NCBI GenBank assembly: GCA_040768135.1
Contig: JAXGNF010000007.1
Location: 1 to 57,746, forward strand
Length of the DNA stretch: 57,746 nt
Reading direction: 5' to 3'
Origin: Thermoleophilia bacterium
GTDB taxonomy: Bacteria; Actinomycetota; Thermoleophilia; RBG-16-64-13
Under the pieces are notes generated by a model. That model ran no database searches. It had not been told where the DNA came from and saw nothing but the letters and a program-made list of their open reading frames with translations. Positions 370 through 56,858 of this stretch are shown here, in pieces. The first letter of the stretch is position 1; each line of letters opens with the position of its first letter. A program made the position numbers and the translations under genes.

Positions 370-2880
370 ATGAAGGCAGTTGTCATGGCCGGCGGTCAGG
401 GCACGCGTCTGCGGCCCCTCACCTCGAACCAGCCCAAACCGATGGTGCCGGTGGTGAACAAACCTACCATCCAGCACATCCTCGAGTTGCTTCAGAGACA
501 CGGCATCAACGAAGTGGTCATGACTTTGGCCTTCTTGCCGCGGCTCATCCGCAACTACTTCGGCGACGGCAGCAGCCTTGGCATGAAGATCGACTACACA
601 GTCGAAGAGACTCCAGCGGGCACCGCCGGATCGATACGACTGGCGAGGGAACTCCTCGACGATACCTTCATGGTCATCAGCGGCGATGCCCTGACCGACT
701 TCGACCTCACCAGCGTCGTGGCCTTTCACAAGGAACGACAGGCCACCGTTACCATCGCCCTCAAGAGCGTAGCCAATCCGCTGGAGTTCGGTGTGGTGAT
801 AGTCGATGATGAGGGTCGCATCCAACGCTTCTTGGAGAAACCCGGCTGGGGCCAAGTCTTCTCCGACACGGTCAACACCGGCATCTATGTGCTGGAGCCC
901 GAGGTGTTCGATCATATCCCCGAGGGCCAGCCCTATGACTTCAGCCATGAGTTGTTCCCCAAGCTTTTCGACATGCAGAAGCCTTTGTACGGAACCGTCT
1001 GCGACGGTTACTGGCAAGACATCGGCAGCCTCGAGCAGTATCTCCAGGCCAACCGTGATGCGCTTGACGGCAAAGTGAGACTCACTCCACCCGGGGTGCG
1101 ACTCCGCGGCAATATCTGGGTCGGACAGGGTGCTTCCTTGGATACGCTCGACGACGTCGAGGGGCCGGCGGTCATAGGCGAGAACGTCCGCATAGAGACA
1201 GGGGCTAAGGTTTTCGCGCACACGGTCCTAGGAGATAACACTGTCTTACGCGCAGGCGCGCACGTAAGGGACTCCGTCTTTGCTGAGAACGTCTACATCG
1301 CCTCAGGAGCCACCGTCGGCGGCGTGGTGTTGGGTAGCGCCGTCGAGGTCCATGAAAATGCCCATCTCGCAGAGGGAGTCGTGGTGGGCGATCGTTCGAT
1401 CATCGGACGAAACGCCGTAGTGGCGAACAACGTCAAGGTTTATCCGTTCAAAAACATCGAACCAGGCTCTACAGTACGTTCTTCCATCGTGTGGGAGACC
1501 CGAGGGCCCAGCACCCTTTTTGGACGCGATGGCGTTCGCGGTCTCGCCAATGTGGATGTCACCCCCGAGATGGCCATGCGTCTTGCTATGTCGTACGGCA
1601 CTTTGGTGGGAAAGGGCACATACGTGGTCACGAGTCGCGATACCCACCAGGCCTGCCGCGTCCTCAAGCGGGCCATCATCAGCGGTCTGAATTCCACTGG
1701 GGTCAACGTGCGTGATCTCACCACAGCCACCCTGGCAGTGAACCGCTTTGACATCAAGAGTGGCAACGCGGTCGGTGGAATCCACGTGCGCATGAGCCTT
1801 GATAACCCCGAACAGGTGGAGTTGTTGTTCTCCGAGACCCCAGGGGTCCCGACCGACAACCGACGAGAGCGAGCCATAGAGAACCTCTATTTTCGTGAGG
1901 ACTTCCGCCGAGCTCCTTTCGAGGAGATGGGGCAGGTGATGTACCCACCCCGGGTCATCGAGACCTATACCAACTCTCTGCTCGAGAACTGGAACACTGT
2001 AGCTATCAGGGGGCGCCAGCCCCGGCTTGTACTCGACTACTCCGCATCAGCGCCGGCGTTCTTCTTCTCATCGACGTTGGACAACCTGGGCATCGAGACT
2101 GTGGCTCTAAACACATTCTCCCGCGCGCATTCACGTTTCACTCCGGCCGACAGCCTCCCTCCGGCCGCGGCCCGGGTGGGAGAGATGGTGCGGGCGATGG
2201 AAGCCGATCTCGGAGCGATTCTCGATCCGGGGGCTGAATACCTGTATGTCGTAGACGAGAGGGGAGAGCTTATACCGTCCTTCGCGCTTTTCTTGCTCCT
2301 GTTGCAACATGCGGCCCGCGAAGCGGGGTCCGGGTTTGCCGCCGTGCCACTGCACGCGACTCGTTTGAGCGAGCAGGTGGTGGCCGCAACCGGAGTGAGC
2401 ATCAGGCGGACCAAGTACTCAAAGGCGACGCTTATGGCCGAGGCCACACGTCCAAATACGGTATTTGCCGCCAGCACCGATGGCGGATACATCTATCCTT
2501 CGGTGCTTGCGTCCATGGACGGACTGTTTGCACTGGGCAAGGTGCTCGAACTGGTCTCTATCTCTGATGCTCCTTTGTCCCAGCTCGTGGCCCAAGTGCC
2601 GGTCGCGCATGTCGTCCATTACACGACCGAATGTCCGTGGGATCTGAAAGGAACAGTGATGCGGCGCATGACGGAGAAGCTCCGTCAGGGCCGGGTATCG
2701 CTCGTGGACGGCATCAAGGTCTTTCTTGATCATTCCGAGTGGGCACTTGTGCTACCGGACGCTGAAGAACCGCTTTTTCACGTCTACGCGGAGGCTGGGG
2801 GAGACGAACGGGCCGAGGAGTTGGCGGAGAGCTATCGCAGTTTGCTGGAGACTGCCGTAAGGGATTCGACGTCGACCTAG
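370..2880 (+). CDS. Mannose-1-phosphate guanylyltransferase (NDP-sugar synthase) fused to a left-handed beta-helix and a degenerate phosphomannomutase-like domain
   Basis: [16 protein letters not shown] nucleotidyltransferase motif, hexapeptide repeats, [12 protein letters not shown] start; GGAGG RBS. Confidence 0.9.
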
Positions 2881-2881
2881 A

Positions 2882-3466
2882 CTAGGACTGCGAACTCTTG
2901 GCGATAACCTGCTTGCAGACCGTCTTGAGGGTCTCGAATACGCCCACGCCACTTAGAGCGCACGCCTCAACAACAGGTGAGCCTGTGTGATTGAGCAGCT
3001 CGGTGAGATCGCTGACCGAGAAGATCGCGCTGAGATCTCGTTTGTTCATCTGCAGGACCATGCCAAGATTGTTGATGTCTTCACCCTGCTCCATGAGGTT
3101 GTCCCACAGGTTGAGGTAGCTGTCGACGTTCTCGTCGAGCCGCGATATCTGGCTGTCGGCCACGAAGACCACGCCATCGACGCCCTGCAGCACTAGTTTG
3201 CGCGAAGCATTATAGAAGGACTGCCCAGGCACCGTGTATAAATGGAAACGGGTGCGCAGCCCCTTCACCGTGCCGAGTGATAGCGGGAGGAAGTCGAAGT
3301 AGAGGGTCCGCTCTTCTTCCGTCGCGATACTCACCAACCGGCCTCTTGCCCCCGGGTTGACACGGCGGTAGATGTACTGGATGTTCGTAGTCTTGCCGCA
3401 CAGCCCACATCCGTAGTACACGATCTTGTAGTTGATCTCCCGAGCCGACAGATTGATCAGTGCCAC
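2882..3466 (-). CDS. mglA: MglA-family small GTPase (Myxococcus/Thermus type)
   Basis: INLSAREINYKIVYYGxGLCGKTTN, RTLYFDFLPL, LYTVPGQ, DGVVFVADS and NKRD motifs; start reassigned to GTG 3466 with GGGAG RBS. Confidence 0.92.
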   Translation of the reverse strand: MALINLSAREINYKIVYYGCGLCGKTTNIQYIYRRVNPGARGRLVSIATEEERTLYFDFLPLSLGTVKGLRTRFHLYTVPGQSFYNASRKLVLQGVDGVVFVADSQISRLDENVDSYLNLWDNLMEQGEDINNLGMVLQMNKRDLSAIFSVSDLTELLNHTGSPVVEACALSGVGVFETLKTVCKQVIAKSSQS

Positions 3467-3476
3467 TCGTCGCTCC

Positions 3477-3983
3477 CTATAGTTGTCCGTCACCTTCGCC
3501 GGGGAACCAGGAGTCGATGGCCGTCCCCGCCTCACGGGAGTAGTCGTGATCGATGATCCGTTCTCCTCCTGTGGTATCTTCGGCAGCTTCGAAAACCGGC
3601 TTGAGGACCTCGACCGCCCTCCCCGTGTATAGACGCACCCGACCGACCTGCGTATCATGTCCAAAAGTGATAAGGAGGAGAATCTGTTCGGTCACCTGCA
3701 TCACGTGCAGGTTAGATTCCCGGCCTTCGTGGAACAGCAGGCTGAACTCACGTTCTTTGAGAACCTCAGCCAGTTGACGGGTGGCGGCGAAGGAACCTGC
3801 CGCCAGCGCAGCCAGTGACAACGTATCGGCGTCGGCGTGGGGGGGGGAGGTGGTTATCGGTTGCCCGCTGGTTGAGATCAAGGCAACGAACTGAGACGCC
3901 GTAACCCGCCGCAGCTTGTTGAGGACGCCGTCGATCAACTGCATCTGCTCGTCGTTGATGACGAGGCCTCTACGACCAGCCAC
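3477..3983 (-). CDS. mglB: MglB roadblock/LC7 GTPase-activating protein
   Basis: SLAALAAGSFAA, FHEG and GRVRL motifs plus C-terminal helix; directly upstream of mglA; start GTG 3983 with GGAGG RBS. Confidence 0.85.
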   Translation of the reverse strand: MAGRRGLVINDEQMQLIDGVLNKLRRVTASQFVALISTSGQPITTSPPHADADTLSLAALAAGSFAATRQLAEVLKEREFSLLFHEGRESNLHVMQVTEQILLLITFGHDTQVGRVRLYTGRAVEVLKPVFEAAEDTTGGERIIDHDYSREAGTAIDSWFPGEGDGQL

Positions 3984-4048
3984 GGCAGACCCTCCTTCAG
4001 CACGAATTCGGCGTGTTTCCTTGCCCGACAGTATACAAGGCCCCACCC

Positions 4049-4075
4049 TTATCGGTCACACCCGGGACCAATAGA
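4049..4075 (-). promoter_or_regulatory. Putative sigma28/WhiG-type promoter for mglBA
   Basis: ACCGATAA -10 box (4049-4056); weak -35 TCTAT 14 nt upstream; the 11-mer ACCGATAAGGG is identical to the one upstream of pilT. Confidence 0.5.
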
Positions 4076-4625: not shown

Positions 4626-4916
4626 GTGAACGCCTTGGGTGAGTCTTCATTTGACCGACTGATCAACATTCAGTCGTATAGCGATGACGAGTTGAAGTCG
4701 CTTCATAAGCGCTTGGTTGAGGAAGAGCGTGAGATCTCCATGCGCAGGCGGCTACTGCACGCCGAACTAGACATAATCCGAGCGGAGACGGTCAGACGGC
4801 TGCGCGACAAGAGCAGGGCTGAAGGCGGTCTTGTCCGTGACGGCAATCTGGCCGTTTTGGCGGATATTCTCAGCGGTCGATTGCCCGTCGATGACGATCT
4901 TGAAGTGGGGGGGTGA
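4626..4916 (+). CDS. rsiG: RsiG/AmfC-family anti-sigma factor, single c-di-GMP-binding motif
   Basis: SDDELKSL..EEEREISMRRRLLHAELDIIRAE contains E-x3-S-x2-R-x3-H-x3-D (E34,S38,R41,H45,D49). Confidence 0.75.
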   Translation: MNALGESSFDRLINIQSYSDDELKSLHKRLVEEEREISMRRRLLHAELDIIRAETVRRLRDKSRAEGGLVRDGNLAVLADILSGRLPVDDDLEVGG

Positions 4917-4922
4917 TCTCTC

Positions 4923-5708
4923 GTGCCGGAGGACGTTGAGCCGGTCGTTCGTGGTATTCAGAAGCGCTTCCGTGATCTTTCGGTGGACGTACGCGAAGAG
5001 CGGATCATCCGTTACATCGTCAACCAATTGGGTCAAGGCCGCAAGATAGACGACATAATGGGCGACGCCTACCTCACCGCCCACACCAGTGACGTTTTCC
5101 GGCTCCAAGTGTTGCAGAATCCGGCCGTCATCAGAGCCATCGAAGAAGAACTGCATCGCCAATTTGCTGACTATCAGTCGGCTACCGGCACCGCTGCCGG
5201 CAGCAATCCTCCGCCCGAGCCGGGGGGAAACCCGCAAGACTCGATCGTATGCCCATCTTGTGGGACTTCTAACACCTGCGATTCCAACTTCTGCCGGCGC
5301 TGCGGCAATCGGCTGCCACCCACAGACCCGACTGACGTCACATTGTCGTATTCCCTCGCAGATATGGATACGGGCGCGGGCCTTTTTGCGCCGGGAGCAG
5401 TAAGTGGAACAGTACTTCTGATCCGCGCCGGAGGGGGCCGGGAGGGTGAGGTCGTTAGCCTTGTAGGCGATGTACTTACCGTTGGCCGCAGTCCCCATAG
5501 CGATCTGTTCCTGGACGACGTGACTGTATCGCGTCACCACGCCCGGATCCTGCGAGACGAAGATGAGTTCTTGGTAGAAGATCTGAACAGCCTGAACGGT
5601 ACATACGTGAATCGTAAGCGCATCGAGCGTCACCGTCTCTCTGATGGTGACGAGCTTCAGATCGGTAAATACAAGCTGGCCTTCATCGAGCAGCCAGAGG
5701 AGATCTGA
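4923..5708 (+). CDS. FHA-domain protein (GarA/OdhI-like) with zinc ribbon and an extra N-terminal helical domain
   Basis: CPSC..FCRRC zinc ribbon; VGRSPHSDLFLDDVTVSRHHA and DLNSLNGTYVN FHA motifs. Confidence 0.9.
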   Translation: MPEDVEPVVRGIQKRFRDLSVDVREERIIRYIVNQLGQGRKIDDIMGDAYLTAHTSDVFRLQVLQNPAVIRAIEEELHRQFADYQSATGTAAGSNPPPEPGGNPQDSIVCPSCGTSNTCDSNFCRRCGNRLPPTDPTDVTLSYSLADMDTGAGLFAPGAVSGTVLLIRAGGGREGEVVSLVGDVLTVGRSPHSDLFLDDVTVSRHHARILRDEDEFLVEDLNSLNGTYVNRKRIERHRLSDGDELQIGKYKLAFIEQPEEI

Positions 5709-7399: not shown

Positions 7400-8614
7400 C
7401 TATTGCACCAGATTCATCATGTTGAACATCGGCAGGTACATGGCTATCACGACGAGACCCACCAGACCGCCGACGAACAGCATCATTATCGGTTCGATGA
7501 TCGAGGTGAGTGATTTCACTGCTGCGTCGACTTCGTCTTCATAGAAGTCGGCAATCTTCCCGAGCATGGCATCGAGCGCACCCGTCTCTTCACCGATTGA
7601 GATCATGTGAGTCACCATCGGCGGGAATACGGCGACGCGCGAAAGTGGATGCGCGATCGGCTCACCGCTGCGGACGCTTTCTTTCACATCGATCATCGAG
7701 TGTTCGATAACGTAGTTGCCTGAGGTCTTACCGGTGATATCTATAGCCTGAAGGATCGGGACCCCGGAGCTGACTAGGGTCGACAGAGTCCGACTGAACC
7801 GCGCCAGGGCTATCTTCTGAACGACCGGACCAAGCTTCATGGGGAGCTTCAGCTTCACGCGGTCCCAAGCCCGACGACCTTGCTCGGTCTGTTTCAATTT
7901 GTTGAGACCCCACACGAAAAGCCCCAAGAGCGGGAATATGATGAACCAATAGCCCTTAAGGACGTCGCTGACCCCCATCATGAGTTGTGTCAGTCCCGGG
8001 AGTTCCCCGCCCAGCTCGTCGTACATGCCCGCAAAAATCGGGATGATGAACAACAACATGCCTATCATGACCATGATGGCAAAACCGGCGATGAGGACCG
8101 GGTAGGCCATTGCCGACTTGACCGTGCGCCGGAGACTGTCGTCTTTCTCCAGCTGCTCTGCCAACCGGTTGAGAGTCTGGTCGAGCACGCCCCCCGCCTC
8201 GCCGGCACGGACCATGGACACATATAGACGGTCAAAAGCGGCCGGATGGCGCTCCATGGCATCAGAGAGCGGCATACCTGCTTCGACGTCCCCACTTACG
8301 GCAGAAATGATCTTCTTGAACCGAGGGTTCTCCGTTTGCTCTTCAAGGACATAGAGGGCGCGCAGCACCGCCAGACCGGAGTTGATCATGGTCGAGAACT
8401 GACGGGCGAAGATAGCTTTATCGCGTATCTTGATACGTTGGGAGTTCTCGAACGCCTCTTTCAGTCCGATCGTCTTCCGCTTCTCTTCAAGCTTTATGAC
8501 CGTCAGGCCTTTGTGGCGCAGTTGGGCGACCACCGCTGCCTTGTTGTCGGCCATAGCCTCCCCGGTGAACGGGGCGCCTCTCTCCCGCTTCGCGGTGTAT
8601 GTATAGGTCGCCAC
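7400..8614 (-). CDS. pilC: Type IV pilus platform protein PilC (GspF family)
   Basis: FARQFSTMINSG, GEAGGVLD, FSRTLSTLVSSGVPIL, GEETGALD, EPIM; three TM segments. Confidence 0.95.
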   Translation of the reverse strand: MATYTYTAKRERGAPFTGEAMADNKAAVVAQLRHKGLTVIKLEEKRKTIGLKEAFENSQRIKIRDKAIFARQFSTMINSGLAVLRALYVLEEQTENPRFKKIISAVSGDVEAGMPLSDAMERHPAAFDRLYVSMVRAGEAGGVLDQTLNRLAEQLEKDDSLRRTVKSAMAYPVLIAGFAIMVMIGMLLFIIPIFAGMYDELGGELPGLTQLMMGVSDVLKGYWFIIFPLLGLFVWGLNKLKQTEQGRRAWDRVKLKLPMKLGPVVQKIALARFSRTLSTLVSSGVPILQAIDITGKTSGNYVIEHSMIDVKESVRSGEPIAHPLSRVAVFPPMVTHMISIGEETGALDAMLGKIADFYEDEVDAAVKSLTSIIEPIMMLFVGGLVGLVVIAMYLPMFNMMNLVQ

Positions 8615-8735: not shown

Positions 8736-9800
8736 TCACGCGGCTCCCATTAGCAGCAATCGCTCCAGCTCTTCAGGCACCGATGAGCGCCGAATAGCCA
8801 GCTCTCTCGTGATCTGCCCACGGCGAACCAGGTCCGCCAGACAGGAGTTCATCGTTTGCATTCCATGTTGCGTGCCTGTCTGCATGACCGTATAAAGCTG
8901 ATGAGTTTTGCCCTCCCGGATGAGATTGCGGGCCGCCGGTGTACAGACGAGTACTTCGCACGCTACGGACCGGCCCTTGCCGCTGGCCTTCGGTAGAAGC
9001 TGCTGTGTCACTATCCCTTCGAGGGTAGCGGCAATCTGCACACGGATCTGCTCTTGTTGGTGGGGTGGAAAAACATCGATCATCCGGTCGATGGTCTGGG
9101 GACAGTCCTGGGTGTGAAGGGTCGCAAACACCAAATGACCGGTTTCCGCAGCAGTCAGAGCTATCTGGATGGTCTCCAAATCGCGCATCTCGCCGATGAG
9201 TATTATGTCGGGATCCTGACGCAGAGCGGACCGGAGGGCGATCGGGAATGCCTTCGTGTCGCTACCCACTTCTCTCTGCTTGACGATGCACCGTTTGTGA
9301 CGGTGGAGGAACTCGATGGGATCTTCGATGGTCACGATGTGATCGGCCCGGGTCTGGTTAATCTCGTCGATCATGGCGGCAAGGGTCGTGGACTTGCCCG
9401 AGCCGGTCGGTCCGGTCACTAGAACAAAGCCTCGCGGCCTCTTGCTGAACGTGTGCAACACCTTGGGCAAGCCAAGATCCTCGATGCTCTTGATGGCAGT
9501 GGGGATCAGTCGAAAGGCGGCGCTGAGAGTACCTCTCTGGAAGCAGGCGTTTATACGGAAGCGGGCCATGCCGTAGAGTGCGTATGAGAAATCGACCTCC
9601 CACTCGGTCTCAAGCTTCTGGCGCTGATCCTGGGTAAGGATGCTGTAGATTAGCTCCCGCGTTTCGTTGGCATTCAGGTCGGGGTAATCCAACTTCACGA
9701 GATGTCCGTCGATGCGGACCATCGGAGGTATCCCAACCGAAAGGTGCAGGTCCGAAGCGTCTCTGTCGATCACTTCTTTGAGAATCTCGCCTATGTCCAC
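8736..9800 (-). CDS. pilT: Type IV pilus retraction ATPase
   Basis: GPTGSGKST, TIEDPIE, ALRQDPD, GEMRD, TGHLV..TLH, AARNLIRE. Confidence 0.95.
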   Translation of the reverse strand: MDIGEILKEVIDRDASDLHLSVGIPPMVRIDGHLVKLDYPDLNANETRELIYSILTQDQRQKLETEWEVDFSYALYGMARFRINACFQRGTLSAAFRLIPTAIKSIEDLGLPKVLHTFSKRPRGFVLVTGPTGSGKSTTLAAMIDEINQTRADHIVTIEDPIEFLHRHKRCIVKQREVGSDTKAFPIALRSALRQDPDIILIGEMRDLETIQIALTAAETGHLVFATLHTQDCPQTIDRMIDVFPPHQQEQIRVQIAATLEGIVTQQLLPKASGKGRSVACEVLVCTPAARNLIREGKTHQLYTVMQTGTQHGMQTMNSCLADLVRRGQITRELAIRRSSVPEELERLLLMGAA

Positions 9801-9855: not shown

Positions 9856-11588
<1,733 letters not shown>

Positions 11589-11592
<4 letters not shown>

Positions 11593-12455
11593 CCTTCTTC
11601 GTACTTGATACTGGCCCTCATTGCATCCAAGGGCGGCTCGTTGCCCGTCCACAGACGATAAGTGTGTCCGGCCTGCAACAGGAGCATCTCGATGCCGTCT
11701 ATGGCACGGACCCCGCGCTCTCGGGCCTCCCGTACAAGATGAGTAGGCCCTTTGCCGTACACCAAATCGACCACAGCTAGGCCGCTGTGCAGAATATCGA
11801 CAGGTATCGGCAAGTCCTTGACCTCAGATGTCAACCCTACAGACGTGGCATTCACCAGTAGGTCGGCACCGAGAGCAGCGGCCACGAGATCGGAGTCAGA
11901 GACCGCGTAGCATTCGGTCGGACCCCACGTGTCGGCCACGCGGCACAGAGCCTCCGCACGCGAGAAGGTTCGATTGAATACACCGACGCTTGCAGCTCCC
12001 TCAGCCACAAGCGCCGCCACCACCGCCCGAGCTGCGCCCCCTGCGCCGGCCACTACACAGCGGAGCCCACCGGCACCCTTGGGGACCACGAGTCTGAGAG
12101 ACTCCGAGAAACCGGCCACGTCGGTGTTGTATCCCTTAAGGCGTCCTTGGTCGTTTACGACCGTGTTGACCGCTCCCAACCGGTCTGCGGCAGGATCTAC
12201 ATCATCCAACAGGTCGAGAGCCGCCTCTTTGTGGGGGAGTGTGACATTGACCCCTCGTACGCCCAAAGCCCGAATTCCCGAGAACGCGTCGGCCAGATGT
12301 TCGGGCCGGACATCGAAAGCGAGATACACGAAGTCCAACTTCTGGGCTTCGAACGCTGCATTTTGAATTAGAGGAGACAGGGAGTGGGCCACAGGGCGCC
12401 CTATGAGACCCACTACCCGCGTGTGGGCCGTGATCGTCGGTTGCGGTTCTTGCAT
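11589..12455 (-). CDS. aroE: Shikimate dehydrogenase
   Basis: HSLSP, NVTLPHKE, GAVNT, NTDV, GAGGAARA, NATSVG; start ATG 12455. Confidence 0.93.
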
Positions 12456-16769: not shown

Positions 16770-17615
16770 TCAGACCTCACCTCTCCCCCCGGCCGCTTCA
16801 GCCAGGGCCTCGTCTTCCGCCATGTACTGGCGCAGGTTCTCGATCGACTTTCTAATCAGACGCGACACATGCATCTGAGATATCCCAACCCGAGCGGCTA
16901 CCTGTGTCTGTGTCATGCCCTCAAAAAAGCGCAGATGCAAGATCAGACGTTCCCTGGGTTCGAGACGAGCCATAGCGGGCGCCAAGACCCGGCGCTGCTC
17001 GAACACCTCGTACGCCTCTTCTTCGGTCCCCAGGTAGTCGAGCAGTTCGAGCGATTCGTCATCTTCGGCCGATCCCCCTGAGAAGATCGAGATCGAACTA
17101 TAGGCCCGGCCACTCTCCAGCGCTTCGACCACCTCTTCCTCGCTCACTTCGGCGGCCGCCGCCAGCTCAGCAATGGTCGGCGAGCGTCGCAACTCTACCG
17201 TGAGTTGCTCGATGACCCGGTTCAAGCGGACGTTCAAGTCCTGCAGGGCCCGCGGGACCTTCACAGCCCAACCCTTGTCGCGGAAATACCGTTTTATCTC
17301 CCCCATGATGGTCGGGGTGGCGTACGTGGAAAGCTCGACCCCCCGCTCGAGATCGAATCGATCGATGGCCTTGATCAGCCCGATAGACCCTACCTGGATA
17401 AGGTCTTCGACCGGTTGCCCCCGTGATGCGAACCGCCTAGCCAGGCTCTTCACGAGAGGCAGGTACCGGGTGATGAGCTCCTCACGTGCGGTCAGATCTT
17501 GATGTTCTTTGAGACGCAGCAGAAGCTCACGTTCAGACAATAGCTCCAGGGGCCCAGACCAGGTGCTACCCTCCGGCGAACGCTCGACCTCTTTGCCTTT
17601 CTCCGGTTTCGACAC
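16770..17615 (-). CDS. SigB/SigF/SigG-family RNA polymerase sigma factor
   Basis: DLIQVGSIGLIKAIDRFD, YATPTIMGEIKRYFRD, ISQMHVSRL. Confidence 0.93.
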   Translation of the reverse strand: MSKPEKGKEVERSPEGSTWSGPLELLSERELLLRLKEHQDLTAREELITRYLPLVKSLARRFASRGQPVEDLIQVGSIGLIKAIDRFDLERGVELSTYATPTIMGEIKRYFRDKGWAVKVPRALQDLNVRLNRVIEQLTVELRRSPTIAELAAAAEVSEEEVVEALESGRAYSSISIFSGGSAEDDESLELLDYLGTEEEAYEVFEQRRVLAPAMARLEPRERLILHLRFFEGMTQTQVAARVGISQMHVSRLIRKSIENLRQYMAEDEALAEAAGGRGEV

Positions 17616-20413: not shown

Positions 20414-20436
20414 CGCTTCCCTTCCTAAATAAAAAT

Positions 20437-20588
20437 GCTCCACCTTGCCGTGTCTGACAGGCGCTTGAACCTGCCGAAGCAGGTGGGTGGCCGCCCCTGA
20501 AAGGATATACGCCGTTCAGGCAAACATGCCTCCCAAGCGAAATGTGTTGGCTCAAGTTTGGGCCAGATCACGCACAAGGTCGAGCAAC
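20437..20588 (-). ncRNA. ssrS: 6S RNA
   Basis: CACCCACCTG-cttcgg-CAGGTTCAAG 3' signature; 5' CTTGAG/TTGGGAG elements; ends pair GCTC-ACCTTG-CGTG-TCTG with CAGA-CACG-CAAGGT-GAGC; located downstream of aspS. Confidence 0.85.
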
Positions 20589-56676: not shown

Positions 56677-56707
56677 AAAGAAGCCTGAGGCGTAAGCGCC
56701 CCGCTTC

Positions 56708-56820
56708 GGTCTTCTCCCTTCCAGACTTTCACTGTCGGCCCAGGGATCTCACCTGGTCTACCCTCAACGGGCTCGCGGACTATTACCGCCGGTAGGGAAT
56801 CTCACCCGACCCCGAAGACC
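56708..56820 (-). promoter_or_regulatory. FMN riboswitch (RFN element)
   Basis: GGTCTTCGGGGTCGGGTGAGATTCCCTACCGGCGGTAATAGTCCGCGAG...GGTGAGATCC...CCGACAGTGAAAGTCTGGAAGGGAGAAGACC upstream of ribD. Confidence 0.95.
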
Positions 56821-56858
56821 CAATATCGTTTCTCACCTGCAACGATGCAGCAGAGAAT

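Follow-up and report, generated by a model that had tools for sequence, protein, structure and literature searches.

A Group 1 MglB-MglA gene pair at a fixed chromosomal position in Thermoleophilia-like Actinomycetota, with a candidate role in type IVa pilus polarity

We examined a stretch of 57,746 nucleotides (nt) from a Thermoleophilia bacterium (contig JAXGNF010000007.1 of assembly GCA_040768135.1; GTDB RBG-16-64-13), hereafter called the window, which carries an adjacent pair of genes encoding an MglA-family Ras-like GTPase and its predicted partner, MglB. The two genes (mglBA; Table 1) lie on the reverse strand between a nucleotidyltransferase fusion gene and gcvH, in agreement with the coordinates given by a first-pass annotation made from the sequence alone. 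The order is mglB and then mglA on the same strand, separated by a gap of 10 nt. Relatives were collected through a scan for MglA with tblastn confirmation, using one genome per GTDB species, which gave 198 stretches. All locus counts below refer to the best 80 of these stretches (79-95% identity; named L001-L080), which derive from species-level metagenome-assembled genomes (MAGs). These comprise clade A with 39 loci, including the window and Actinobacteria bacterium RBG_16_64_13, and clade B with 41 loci, including Thermoleophilia bacterium UBA2241.

The annotated starts of both genes were backed by homologues. Homologues of MglA with 88-99% identity aligned over all 194 amino acids (aa) at full coverage and shared the same N-terminus, and 31 of the 32 aligned MglB sequences began at the same column. 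It was noted that in one locus (L011, 9462-9963) mglB was broken across two reading frames, through either a frameshift or an assembly error. Ribosome-binding sites (RBSs) precede both genes. At the position of the mglB RBS, AAGGAGG was conserved in related loci, while the RBS of mglA shares one base with the end of the stop codon of mglB, suggesting translational coupling. A -10-like hexamer, TATACT, was found at 4035..4030 inside cTTGTATACTg, 47 nt upstream of the mglB start. The corresponding element TATA[CA]T, usually inside TTGTATACT, was encountered between 30 and 66 nt ahead of the mglB start in 77 of the 79 loci with enough upstream sequence, compared to a background of 0.007 per 100 nt. 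Because this element is kept while the remaining spacer upstream of mglB diverges among loci, it appears to mark a real mglBA promoter, likely of the housekeeping type. The 10-nt gap, the two RBSs, and the conserved -10 element together argue that mglB and mglA form an intact two-gene operon, and its expression is predicted. A second conserved block was also noted upstream of mglB (CATGATAGCACAGC in clade A and GACGATAC in clade B), and it looks like the promoter of the divergent gcvH or rsiG gene.

We compared MglA with all PDB chains (phmmer) and found that its best matches were Myxococcus xanthus MglA (E 1.8e-72) and Thermus thermophilus MglA (E 1.5e-65), with both alignments running over residues 1-190 without a single gap. 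The next matches were Arf proteins and a mini-G protein (E > 1e-5). Relative to M. xanthus MglA (PDB 6hjh), 113 of the 190 ungapped positions were identical (59.5%), and the residues kept include G19, G21, G24, K25, T26, T27, R53, T54, T78, P80, G81, Q82, N141, K142, and D144. The protein consists of a single domain with a P-loop reading GCGLCGKTT, which fits the G1 pattern GxxxxGKT, and a G4 motif reading NKRD, which fits NKxD. The arginine finger R53 adjoins the G2 threonine T54 within EEERTLYFDF and is aligned with R53-T54 of M. xanthus, and the G3 motif TVPGQ (T78-V-P80-G81-Q82) contains the catalytic Q82. The M. xanthus MglA motifs named by the first-pass annotation were all recovered (INLSAREINYKIVYYG, RTLYFDFLPL, and YTVPGQ).

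Group 1 of the MglA family is defined by an intrinsic Arg adjoining the G2 Thr and by a TVPGQ G3 motif (Wuichet & Sogaard-Andersen 2014, PMC4316618). In Groups 2-5, which include the GTPases of actinobacterial conservons, a Thr replaces the arginine finger, and Group 2 members carry NxFD in G4, with genes for a histidine kinase and a DUF742 protein always accompanying theirs (PMC4316618). Since the MglA of the window has the arginine finger beside the G2 Thr and the TVPGQ motif, and has no histidine kinase or DUF742 neighbor, its assignment to Group 1 (the Myxococcus/Thermus type) was confirmed by these motif criteria. The earlier description of the pair as Myxococcus-type rather than conservon-like was borne out by the same features and by NKRD, not NxFD, in G4.

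Longer proteins were observed among the Group-1-like MglA representatives of a library clustered at 50% identity. Most of the representatives P0243-P0389 (e.g. P0247 and P0256) were 300-890 aa in length, and in them a long tail of low complexity, lacking any Pfam domain, comes after the MglA domain. These tails close with a short basic/hydrophobic stretch (…KKQFFLFRWLFRRG, …KKRGFFSRLFGG) resembling a membrane-targeting helix. The long-tailed proteins could be a real fused subfamily or an effect of the choice of representatives.

The MglB protein matched Pfam Robl_LC7 (PF03259) with 39.8 bits (cut-off 23), and as a single sequence its best PDB matches were M. xanthus MglB (E 3e-17) followed by T. 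thermophilus MglB. A clade profile was built from 32 clade members and matched to the PDB, giving E 1.2e-22 for M. xanthus MglB and E 4.4e-13 for T. thermophilus MglB, with the best non-MglB Roadblock structure at E 3.9e-5. The profile alignment reaches the very C-terminus, where 'aaIDdLFpe' is found against 'DDIDNLFSE' in Myxococcus and 'ALLDDLL' in Thermus. The first-pass annotation had claimed that MglB retains a C-terminal helix, and this was supported at the level of the alignment to the Myxococcus C-terminus, while the structural side of the claim comes from a poor model: AlphaFold2, run with a 32-sequence alignment of close homologues, placed a helix at 146-159 with a predicted local distance difference test (pLDDT) score below 50, and the mean pLDDT of the model was 44.5. 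The residue equivalent to M. xanthus G68 in the MglB helix is replaced, the sequence here reading AATRQLA as in Thermus. Because its score on NCBIfam NF052242, the Thermus-type MglB equivalog, is far under the cut-off (67.9 bits; cut-off 200), MglB is best filed in the broad MglB family only, and not in that equivalog.

We then assessed how the pair is distributed and inherited. The mglBA pair was syntenic in 79 of the 80 loci, occupying the same chromosomal slot on contigs of up to 4.6 Mb. Median identities to the window in clades A and B, respectively, were 88% and 81% for MglA, 73% and 59% for MglB, 76% and 64% for Apt, 59% and 47% for the FHA protein, and 60% and 39% for FtsR. MglA was the most conserved protein of the neighborhood in both clades, and mglA is evidently under strong purifying selection. 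The GC content was even across the region. In the 50%-identity library, a single representative (92% identical) stood for the entire actinobacterial MglA clade, and the next full-length representatives shared at most 59% identity, with no close donor visible. The fixed slot in 79 of 80 loci, the uniform GC content, and the absence of a close donor argue for vertical inheritance of mglBA over a long time in an uncultured, Thermoleophilia-like lineage of Actinomycetota.

Several features point to an actinobacterial host. The FtsR of the window scored 201 bits on the actinobacterial NCBIfam equivalog model (cut-off 150), and ftsR directly follows an OdhI/GarA-like FHA gene, an arrangement that is kept throughout Actinobacteria (PMC6683498). 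A single-motif RsiG, so far known only from Rubrobacteria and Thermoleophilia (PMC8325347), is encoded nearby, and the taxon labels of all 80 loci are Actinomycetota, Actinomycetes, Thermoleophilia, or Gaiellales. On these sequence features and labels, the host of the mglBA locus is assigned to the Actinobacteria.

The neighborhood differs between the two clades. In clade A, one arm carries aroE, pilB, pilT, and pilC, followed on the opposite strand by apt, ftsR, the FHA gene, the rsiG-like gene, and gcvH, and then by mglB, mglA, the convergent nucleotidyltransferase-PGM/PMM fusion, plsY, der, ispH, cmk, aroA, and tyrA. The fusion gene adjoins mglA throughout clade A, and in the window the two stop codons are 1 nt apart. 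In one clade A locus (L029, 2900-6050), genes for an SLH-domain protein, a rhodanese-like protein, a multihaem cytochrome, and a sigma factor were inserted between pilC and apt. In clade B, mglB-mglA lies beside the rsiG-like gene, the FHA gene, ftsR, and apt; gcvH is missing, the rsiG-like gene is directly divergent from mglB, and a VanW-like gene stands between mglA and the transferase fusion. The RsiG homologue was matched to Rubrobacter RsiG (PDB 7lq2; E 2.5e-7), and its cyclic di-GMP (c-di-GMP) motif reads E-x3-S-x2-R-x3-H-x3-D, with the canonical Gln replaced by His. The rsiG-like gene was found beside mglBA in 66 of the 80 loci. It was noted that the FHA protein carries an N-terminal domain of about 100 aa without assignment and a zinc ribbon ahead of its OdhI-like FHA domain. 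The first-pass annotation had named DUF881/DUF1290 genes as the usual occupants of this slot, a claim that was not confirmed: none were found in the window or in L004, and according to the FtsR paper (PMC6683498) the genes preceding odhI/garA are not the same in all Actinobacteria. Elsewhere in the window, a 6S RNA gene (20433-20588, reverse strand, 69.7 bits) and a flavin mononucleotide (FMN) riboswitch (56705-56823, reverse strand, 110 bits) preceding ribD-ribE-ribBA genes were detected, and no tRNA genes were found within its 57.7 kb.

Table 1. Features at and around the mglBA locus, with their positions in the window.
Feature	Position	Strand	Description
Nucleotidyltransferase-PGM/PMM fusion	370-2880	+	836 aa; sugar-1-phosphate nucleotidyltransferase with hexapeptide domain and PGM/PMM-family mutase; stop at 2880
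mglA	2882..3466	-	GTG start 3466, TAG stop 2884-2882; 194 aa; Group 1 MglA Ras-like GTPase
RBS of mglA, GGGAG	3473..3477	-	6 nt before GTG
mglB	3477..3983	-	GTG start 3983, TAG stop 3479-3477; 168 aa; Roadblock/LC7, predicted GTPase-activating protein (GAP) of MglA
RBS of mglB, GAAGGAGG	3991..3998	-	7 nt before GTG, from sequence
Promoter-like site of mglBA	4030..4059	-	GTGACC, 18 nt, TATACT; sigma-70-like consensus scan
gcvH	starts 4134	+	divergent from mglB
Single-motif RsiG homologue	4626..4916	+	96 aa; Pfam RsiG-like 47 bits, cut-off 27
FHA gene at OdhI/GarA position	4923-5708	+	261 aa, compared to the usual ~140
pilC	7400..8614	-	platform protein; Pfam T2SSF x2; NCBIfam PilC models 428 and 418 bits, under equivalog cut-offs of 700
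pilT	8736..9800	-	retraction ATPase; TIGR01420 PilT/PilU type 4a, 503 bits, cut-off 319
pilB	9856..11652	-	extension ATPase; TIGR02538 643.9 bits, just below cut-off 675.65; longest open reading frame

The type IV pilus genes pilC, pilT, and pilB were found on the far side of this neighborhood. The end of pilC (7400) lies 3.4 kb from the mglB start, a distance that the first-pass annotation had given correctly and that is kept within the window's own clade. Of the clade A loci whose flanking sequence reached 9 kb or more, pilC was present in 33 of 33, and pilT and pilB in 31 of 33. Because the longest open reading frame of pilB overlaps the end of aroE, the true start of pilB is probably later. 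We determined that the closeness of mglBA to pilC reflects a shared placement in a housekeeping region and not an operon, and proximity is the ground on which we infer a link between the pair and the pili.

In Rubrobacter, the RsiG-WhiG pair controls type IV pilus genes (PMC8325347), and the locus resembles its (RsiG)2-(c-di-GMP)2-WhiG switch in that a single-motif RsiG is encoded beside mglBA and that PilB carries an N-terminal c-di-GMP-binding domain of the MshEN type (NF053729, 51.3 bits; cut-off 38). By analogy, the RsiG homologue and the MshEN domain of PilB suggest that pili in this lineage, too, are controlled through c-di-GMP. The locus differs from the Rubrobacter switch in the replacement of Gln by His in the RsiG motif and in the absence of WhiG from the window. 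A sigma factor encoded at 16770-17615 was considered as a WhiG candidate and rejected, since it is of the SigB/F/G type.

Among the Ras-like polarity switches of bacteria, Group 1 MglA/MglB is understood best, and to our knowledge studies of it are confined to Myxococcus, Bdellovibrio, and Thermus. The pair described here resembles M. xanthus mglBA (PDB 5ymx, 6izw, 6h5b, 6hjm) in its mglB-mglA order, in an MglA that is colinear over 190 residues, and in an MglB with a Roadblock core and a C-terminal IDxLF segment. It differs from that system in its host, an actinobacterium that is presumed to be monoderm, and in that no sign of reversals was encountered; genes for RomR/RomX, MglC, SgmX, FrzS, Frz, and gliding (Agl-Glt) were not seen in the 57.7 kb window. 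With T. thermophilus (PDB 3t12, 3t1q, 1j3w) it shares a Group 1 MglA with an adjacent MglB and, as predicted here from pilB, pilT, and pilC, a type IVa pilus with PilT. The Thermus pair positions pili at the pole, and no Frz-type reversal system is known there. The phylum and the cell envelope are different, and the MglB of the window falls well below the Thermus equivalog cut-off. Overall, Thermus offers the closest functional analogy and would be the most economical model for mglBA here. The actinobacterial conservon (CvnA-D; Mfp in mycobacteria) likewise pairs an MglA-family GTPase with a Roadblock protein, but in it a Thr replaces the arginine finger, G4 reads NxFD, and genes for a histidine kinase and a DUF742 protein accompany the pair, whereas the neighbors here are the nucleotidyltransferase fusion and gcvH.

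We consider it moderately probable that the pair acts as an MglA/MglB polarity switch controlling polar type IVa pili in this Thermoleophilia-like lineage, and we infer that polar pilus control is the most likely function of mglBA. MglA/MglB set pilus polarity in Myxococcus, and PMC12024867, citing Salzer 2015, states that deletion of the two proteins delocalises T. thermophilus pili. In the mechanism proposed here, MglA would supply the full nucleotide-switch apparatus, of which the P-loop, the arginine finger R53, Q82, and NKRD are present at the sequence level. MglB, which at the same level retains both its Roadblock core and the C-terminal stretch that in M. xanthus MglB is a helix contacting MglA, would act as a dimer as the GAP of MglA-GTP, as expected from the M. 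xanthus and T. thermophilus homologues. By the same comparison, MglA-GTP and MglB would each be restricted to its own pole, at opposite ends of the cell, and from the genomic context and the homologues MglA-GTP may place or activate the type IVa pilus machine at one pole. The likely outcome would be unipolar pili, which could serve directed twitching or polar adhesion.

A number of observations weigh against this reading. In clade B, pilB, pilT, and pilC were found within 10 kb in 0 of the 31 loci with enough flanking sequence, although mglBA is retained; in one such locus (L075), hflX, dut, and a NUDIX gene occupy the place of the pil genes. mglBA and pilBTC also do not form one transcription unit, as they are separated by five genes of the opposite strand (gcvH, rsiG-like, FHA, ftsR, and apt). 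No pilin, PilM/N/O, or PilD was found in the 57.7 kb window. A pilin-motif scan of the window and the 80 loci gave a single match, a type IV pilin gene (…QQGFTLIEILIVV…) in a clade B locus (L072, 1915-2454, forward strand) between a NUDIX gene and apt, in the slot that pilBTC occupies in clade A; on the basis of this gene, at least some clade B genomes appear to encode pilins, which counts in favor of the pilus reading. WhiG-type promoters (TAAA-N13-18-GCCGATAA, at most 2 mismatches) gave 8 matches compared to about 12 expected by chance, with zero matches upstream of mglB or pilB. Further points on this side are the poor MglB model and the low score on the Thermus-type equivalog noted above. 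Additional Roadblock or MglA paralogues (MglC/SofG-like) were not found in a hidden Markov model search of the window and the 80 loci, nor was a partner of the RomR/MglC type seen in either. Finally, all carriers are MAGs and thus come without a phenotype.

These results also bear on the directional twitching with pole switching that the first-pass annotation had proposed. Directional twitching stands in part, as pilB, pilT, and pilC are nearby in the window's own clade; against it are the five opposite-strand genes that intervene and the count of 0 of 31 in clade B. Pole switching fared worse: the window and the loci lack genes for RomR, RomX, MglC, an Frz-like protein, and a second Roadblock or MglA protein, the window has no chemosensory genes, and regulated pole-to-pole switching therefore has no support.

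In an alternative explanation, the MglA/MglB switch marks polarity for a non-pilus process, such as polar growth, division-site or pole identity, or a c-di-GMP lifestyle switch, together with the rsiG-like gene, the FHA gene, and ftsR. In its favor, the neighbors that stay invariant in both clades are the genes for the RsiG-like protein, the FHA protein, FtsR, and Apt rather than pil genes, and the RsiG-like gene is directly divergent from mglB in clade B, the clade that retains mglBA with pil genes absent within 10 kb. FtsR, moreover, activates ftsZ in Corynebacterium (PMC6683498). However, FHA-ftsR is a housekeeping synteny that is found across Actinobacteria also without MglA (PMC6683498), so that its adjacency to mglBA may be fortuitous, and the rsiG-like, FHA, and ftsR genes are transcribed divergently or separately from mglBA. 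All Group 1 MglA proteins studied so far have been tied to motility or pili (PMC4316618, PMC12024867), and the control of type IV pilus genes by RsiG in Rubrobacter (PMC8325347) means that the rsiG link itself points back to pili. On balance, we consider this alternative unlikely. A more specific form, to which we attach slightly less credence still, holds that mglBA is not chiefly a pilus regulator and would instead be part of a conserved pole-identity or cell-cycle locus (mglBA, the single-motif rsiG, the FHA/zinc-ribbon protein, and ftsR) through which signals from c-di-GMP and Ser/Thr phosphorylation act on polar growth or division.

Two further explanations are very improbable. That the pair is conservon-like or otherwise belongs to MglA Groups 2-5 might have been expected, as Actinobacteria had earlier been reported with Group 2 (conservon) and Group 5 MglA only (PMC4316618), but such an identity was ruled out by the motif test (R53 and TVPGQ present; NKRD rather than NxFD in G4), and it is opposed by the 59.5% full-length identity to M. 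xanthus MglA, by the lack of an adjacent histidine kinase or DUF742 gene, and by the MglB profile (E 1e-22 to 5e-13 for the M. xanthus and T. thermophilus MglB, compared to 4e-5 for the best other Roadblock protein). That mglBA is a recent horizontal acquisition, or a binning or assembly contaminant from a myxobacterium or a Deinococcota-like organism, draws on the fact that the module was not previously reported from Actinobacteria, and we give it hardly any weight, given the same slot in 79 of 80 species-level genomes on long contigs, the flanking genes with an actinobacterial signature and uniform GC content, and the lack of a close donor, the next full-length representatives sharing 59% identity or less.

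The mglBA pair places a known module in a new host group. Group 1 MglA was listed in 2014 from twelve lineages (Acidobacteria, Aquificae, Chlorobi, Chloroflexi, Deferribacteres, Deinococcus/Thermus, Dictyoglomi, Fibrobacteres, Gemmatimonadetes, Thermodesulfobacteria, and the delta- and beta/gamma-Proteobacteria), a list from which Actinobacteria were absent, being given Groups 2 and 5 (PMC4316618). As Chloroflexi, a monoderm phylum, were already among them, the pair would not be the first of its kind in a monoderm. A literature search returned no paper naming MglA together with Thermoleophilia, and the papers naming MglA, MglB, and Actinobacteria together mostly concerned conservons or Myxococcus. 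It was noted that the protein already goes by the name 'gliding-motility protein MglA' in some public MAG records. The practical value of the finding is limited, because the carriers are all uncultured MAGs and the protein is already labeled in some records.

By sequence, mglBA represents a clear taxonomic extension of a known polarity switch to a new phylum. Should the pole-identity or cell-cycle reading prove true, a Ras-like polarity GTPase would be shown to serve a novel output in Gram-positive bacteria. In either case, the Group 1 MglA/MglB switch appears to extend to a Gram-positive phylum, where it is highly conserved at a fixed chromosomal position in the 80 loci, and with a second Roadblock or MglA gene absent nearby, MglA and MglB alone may offer a stripped-down version of the switch for study.

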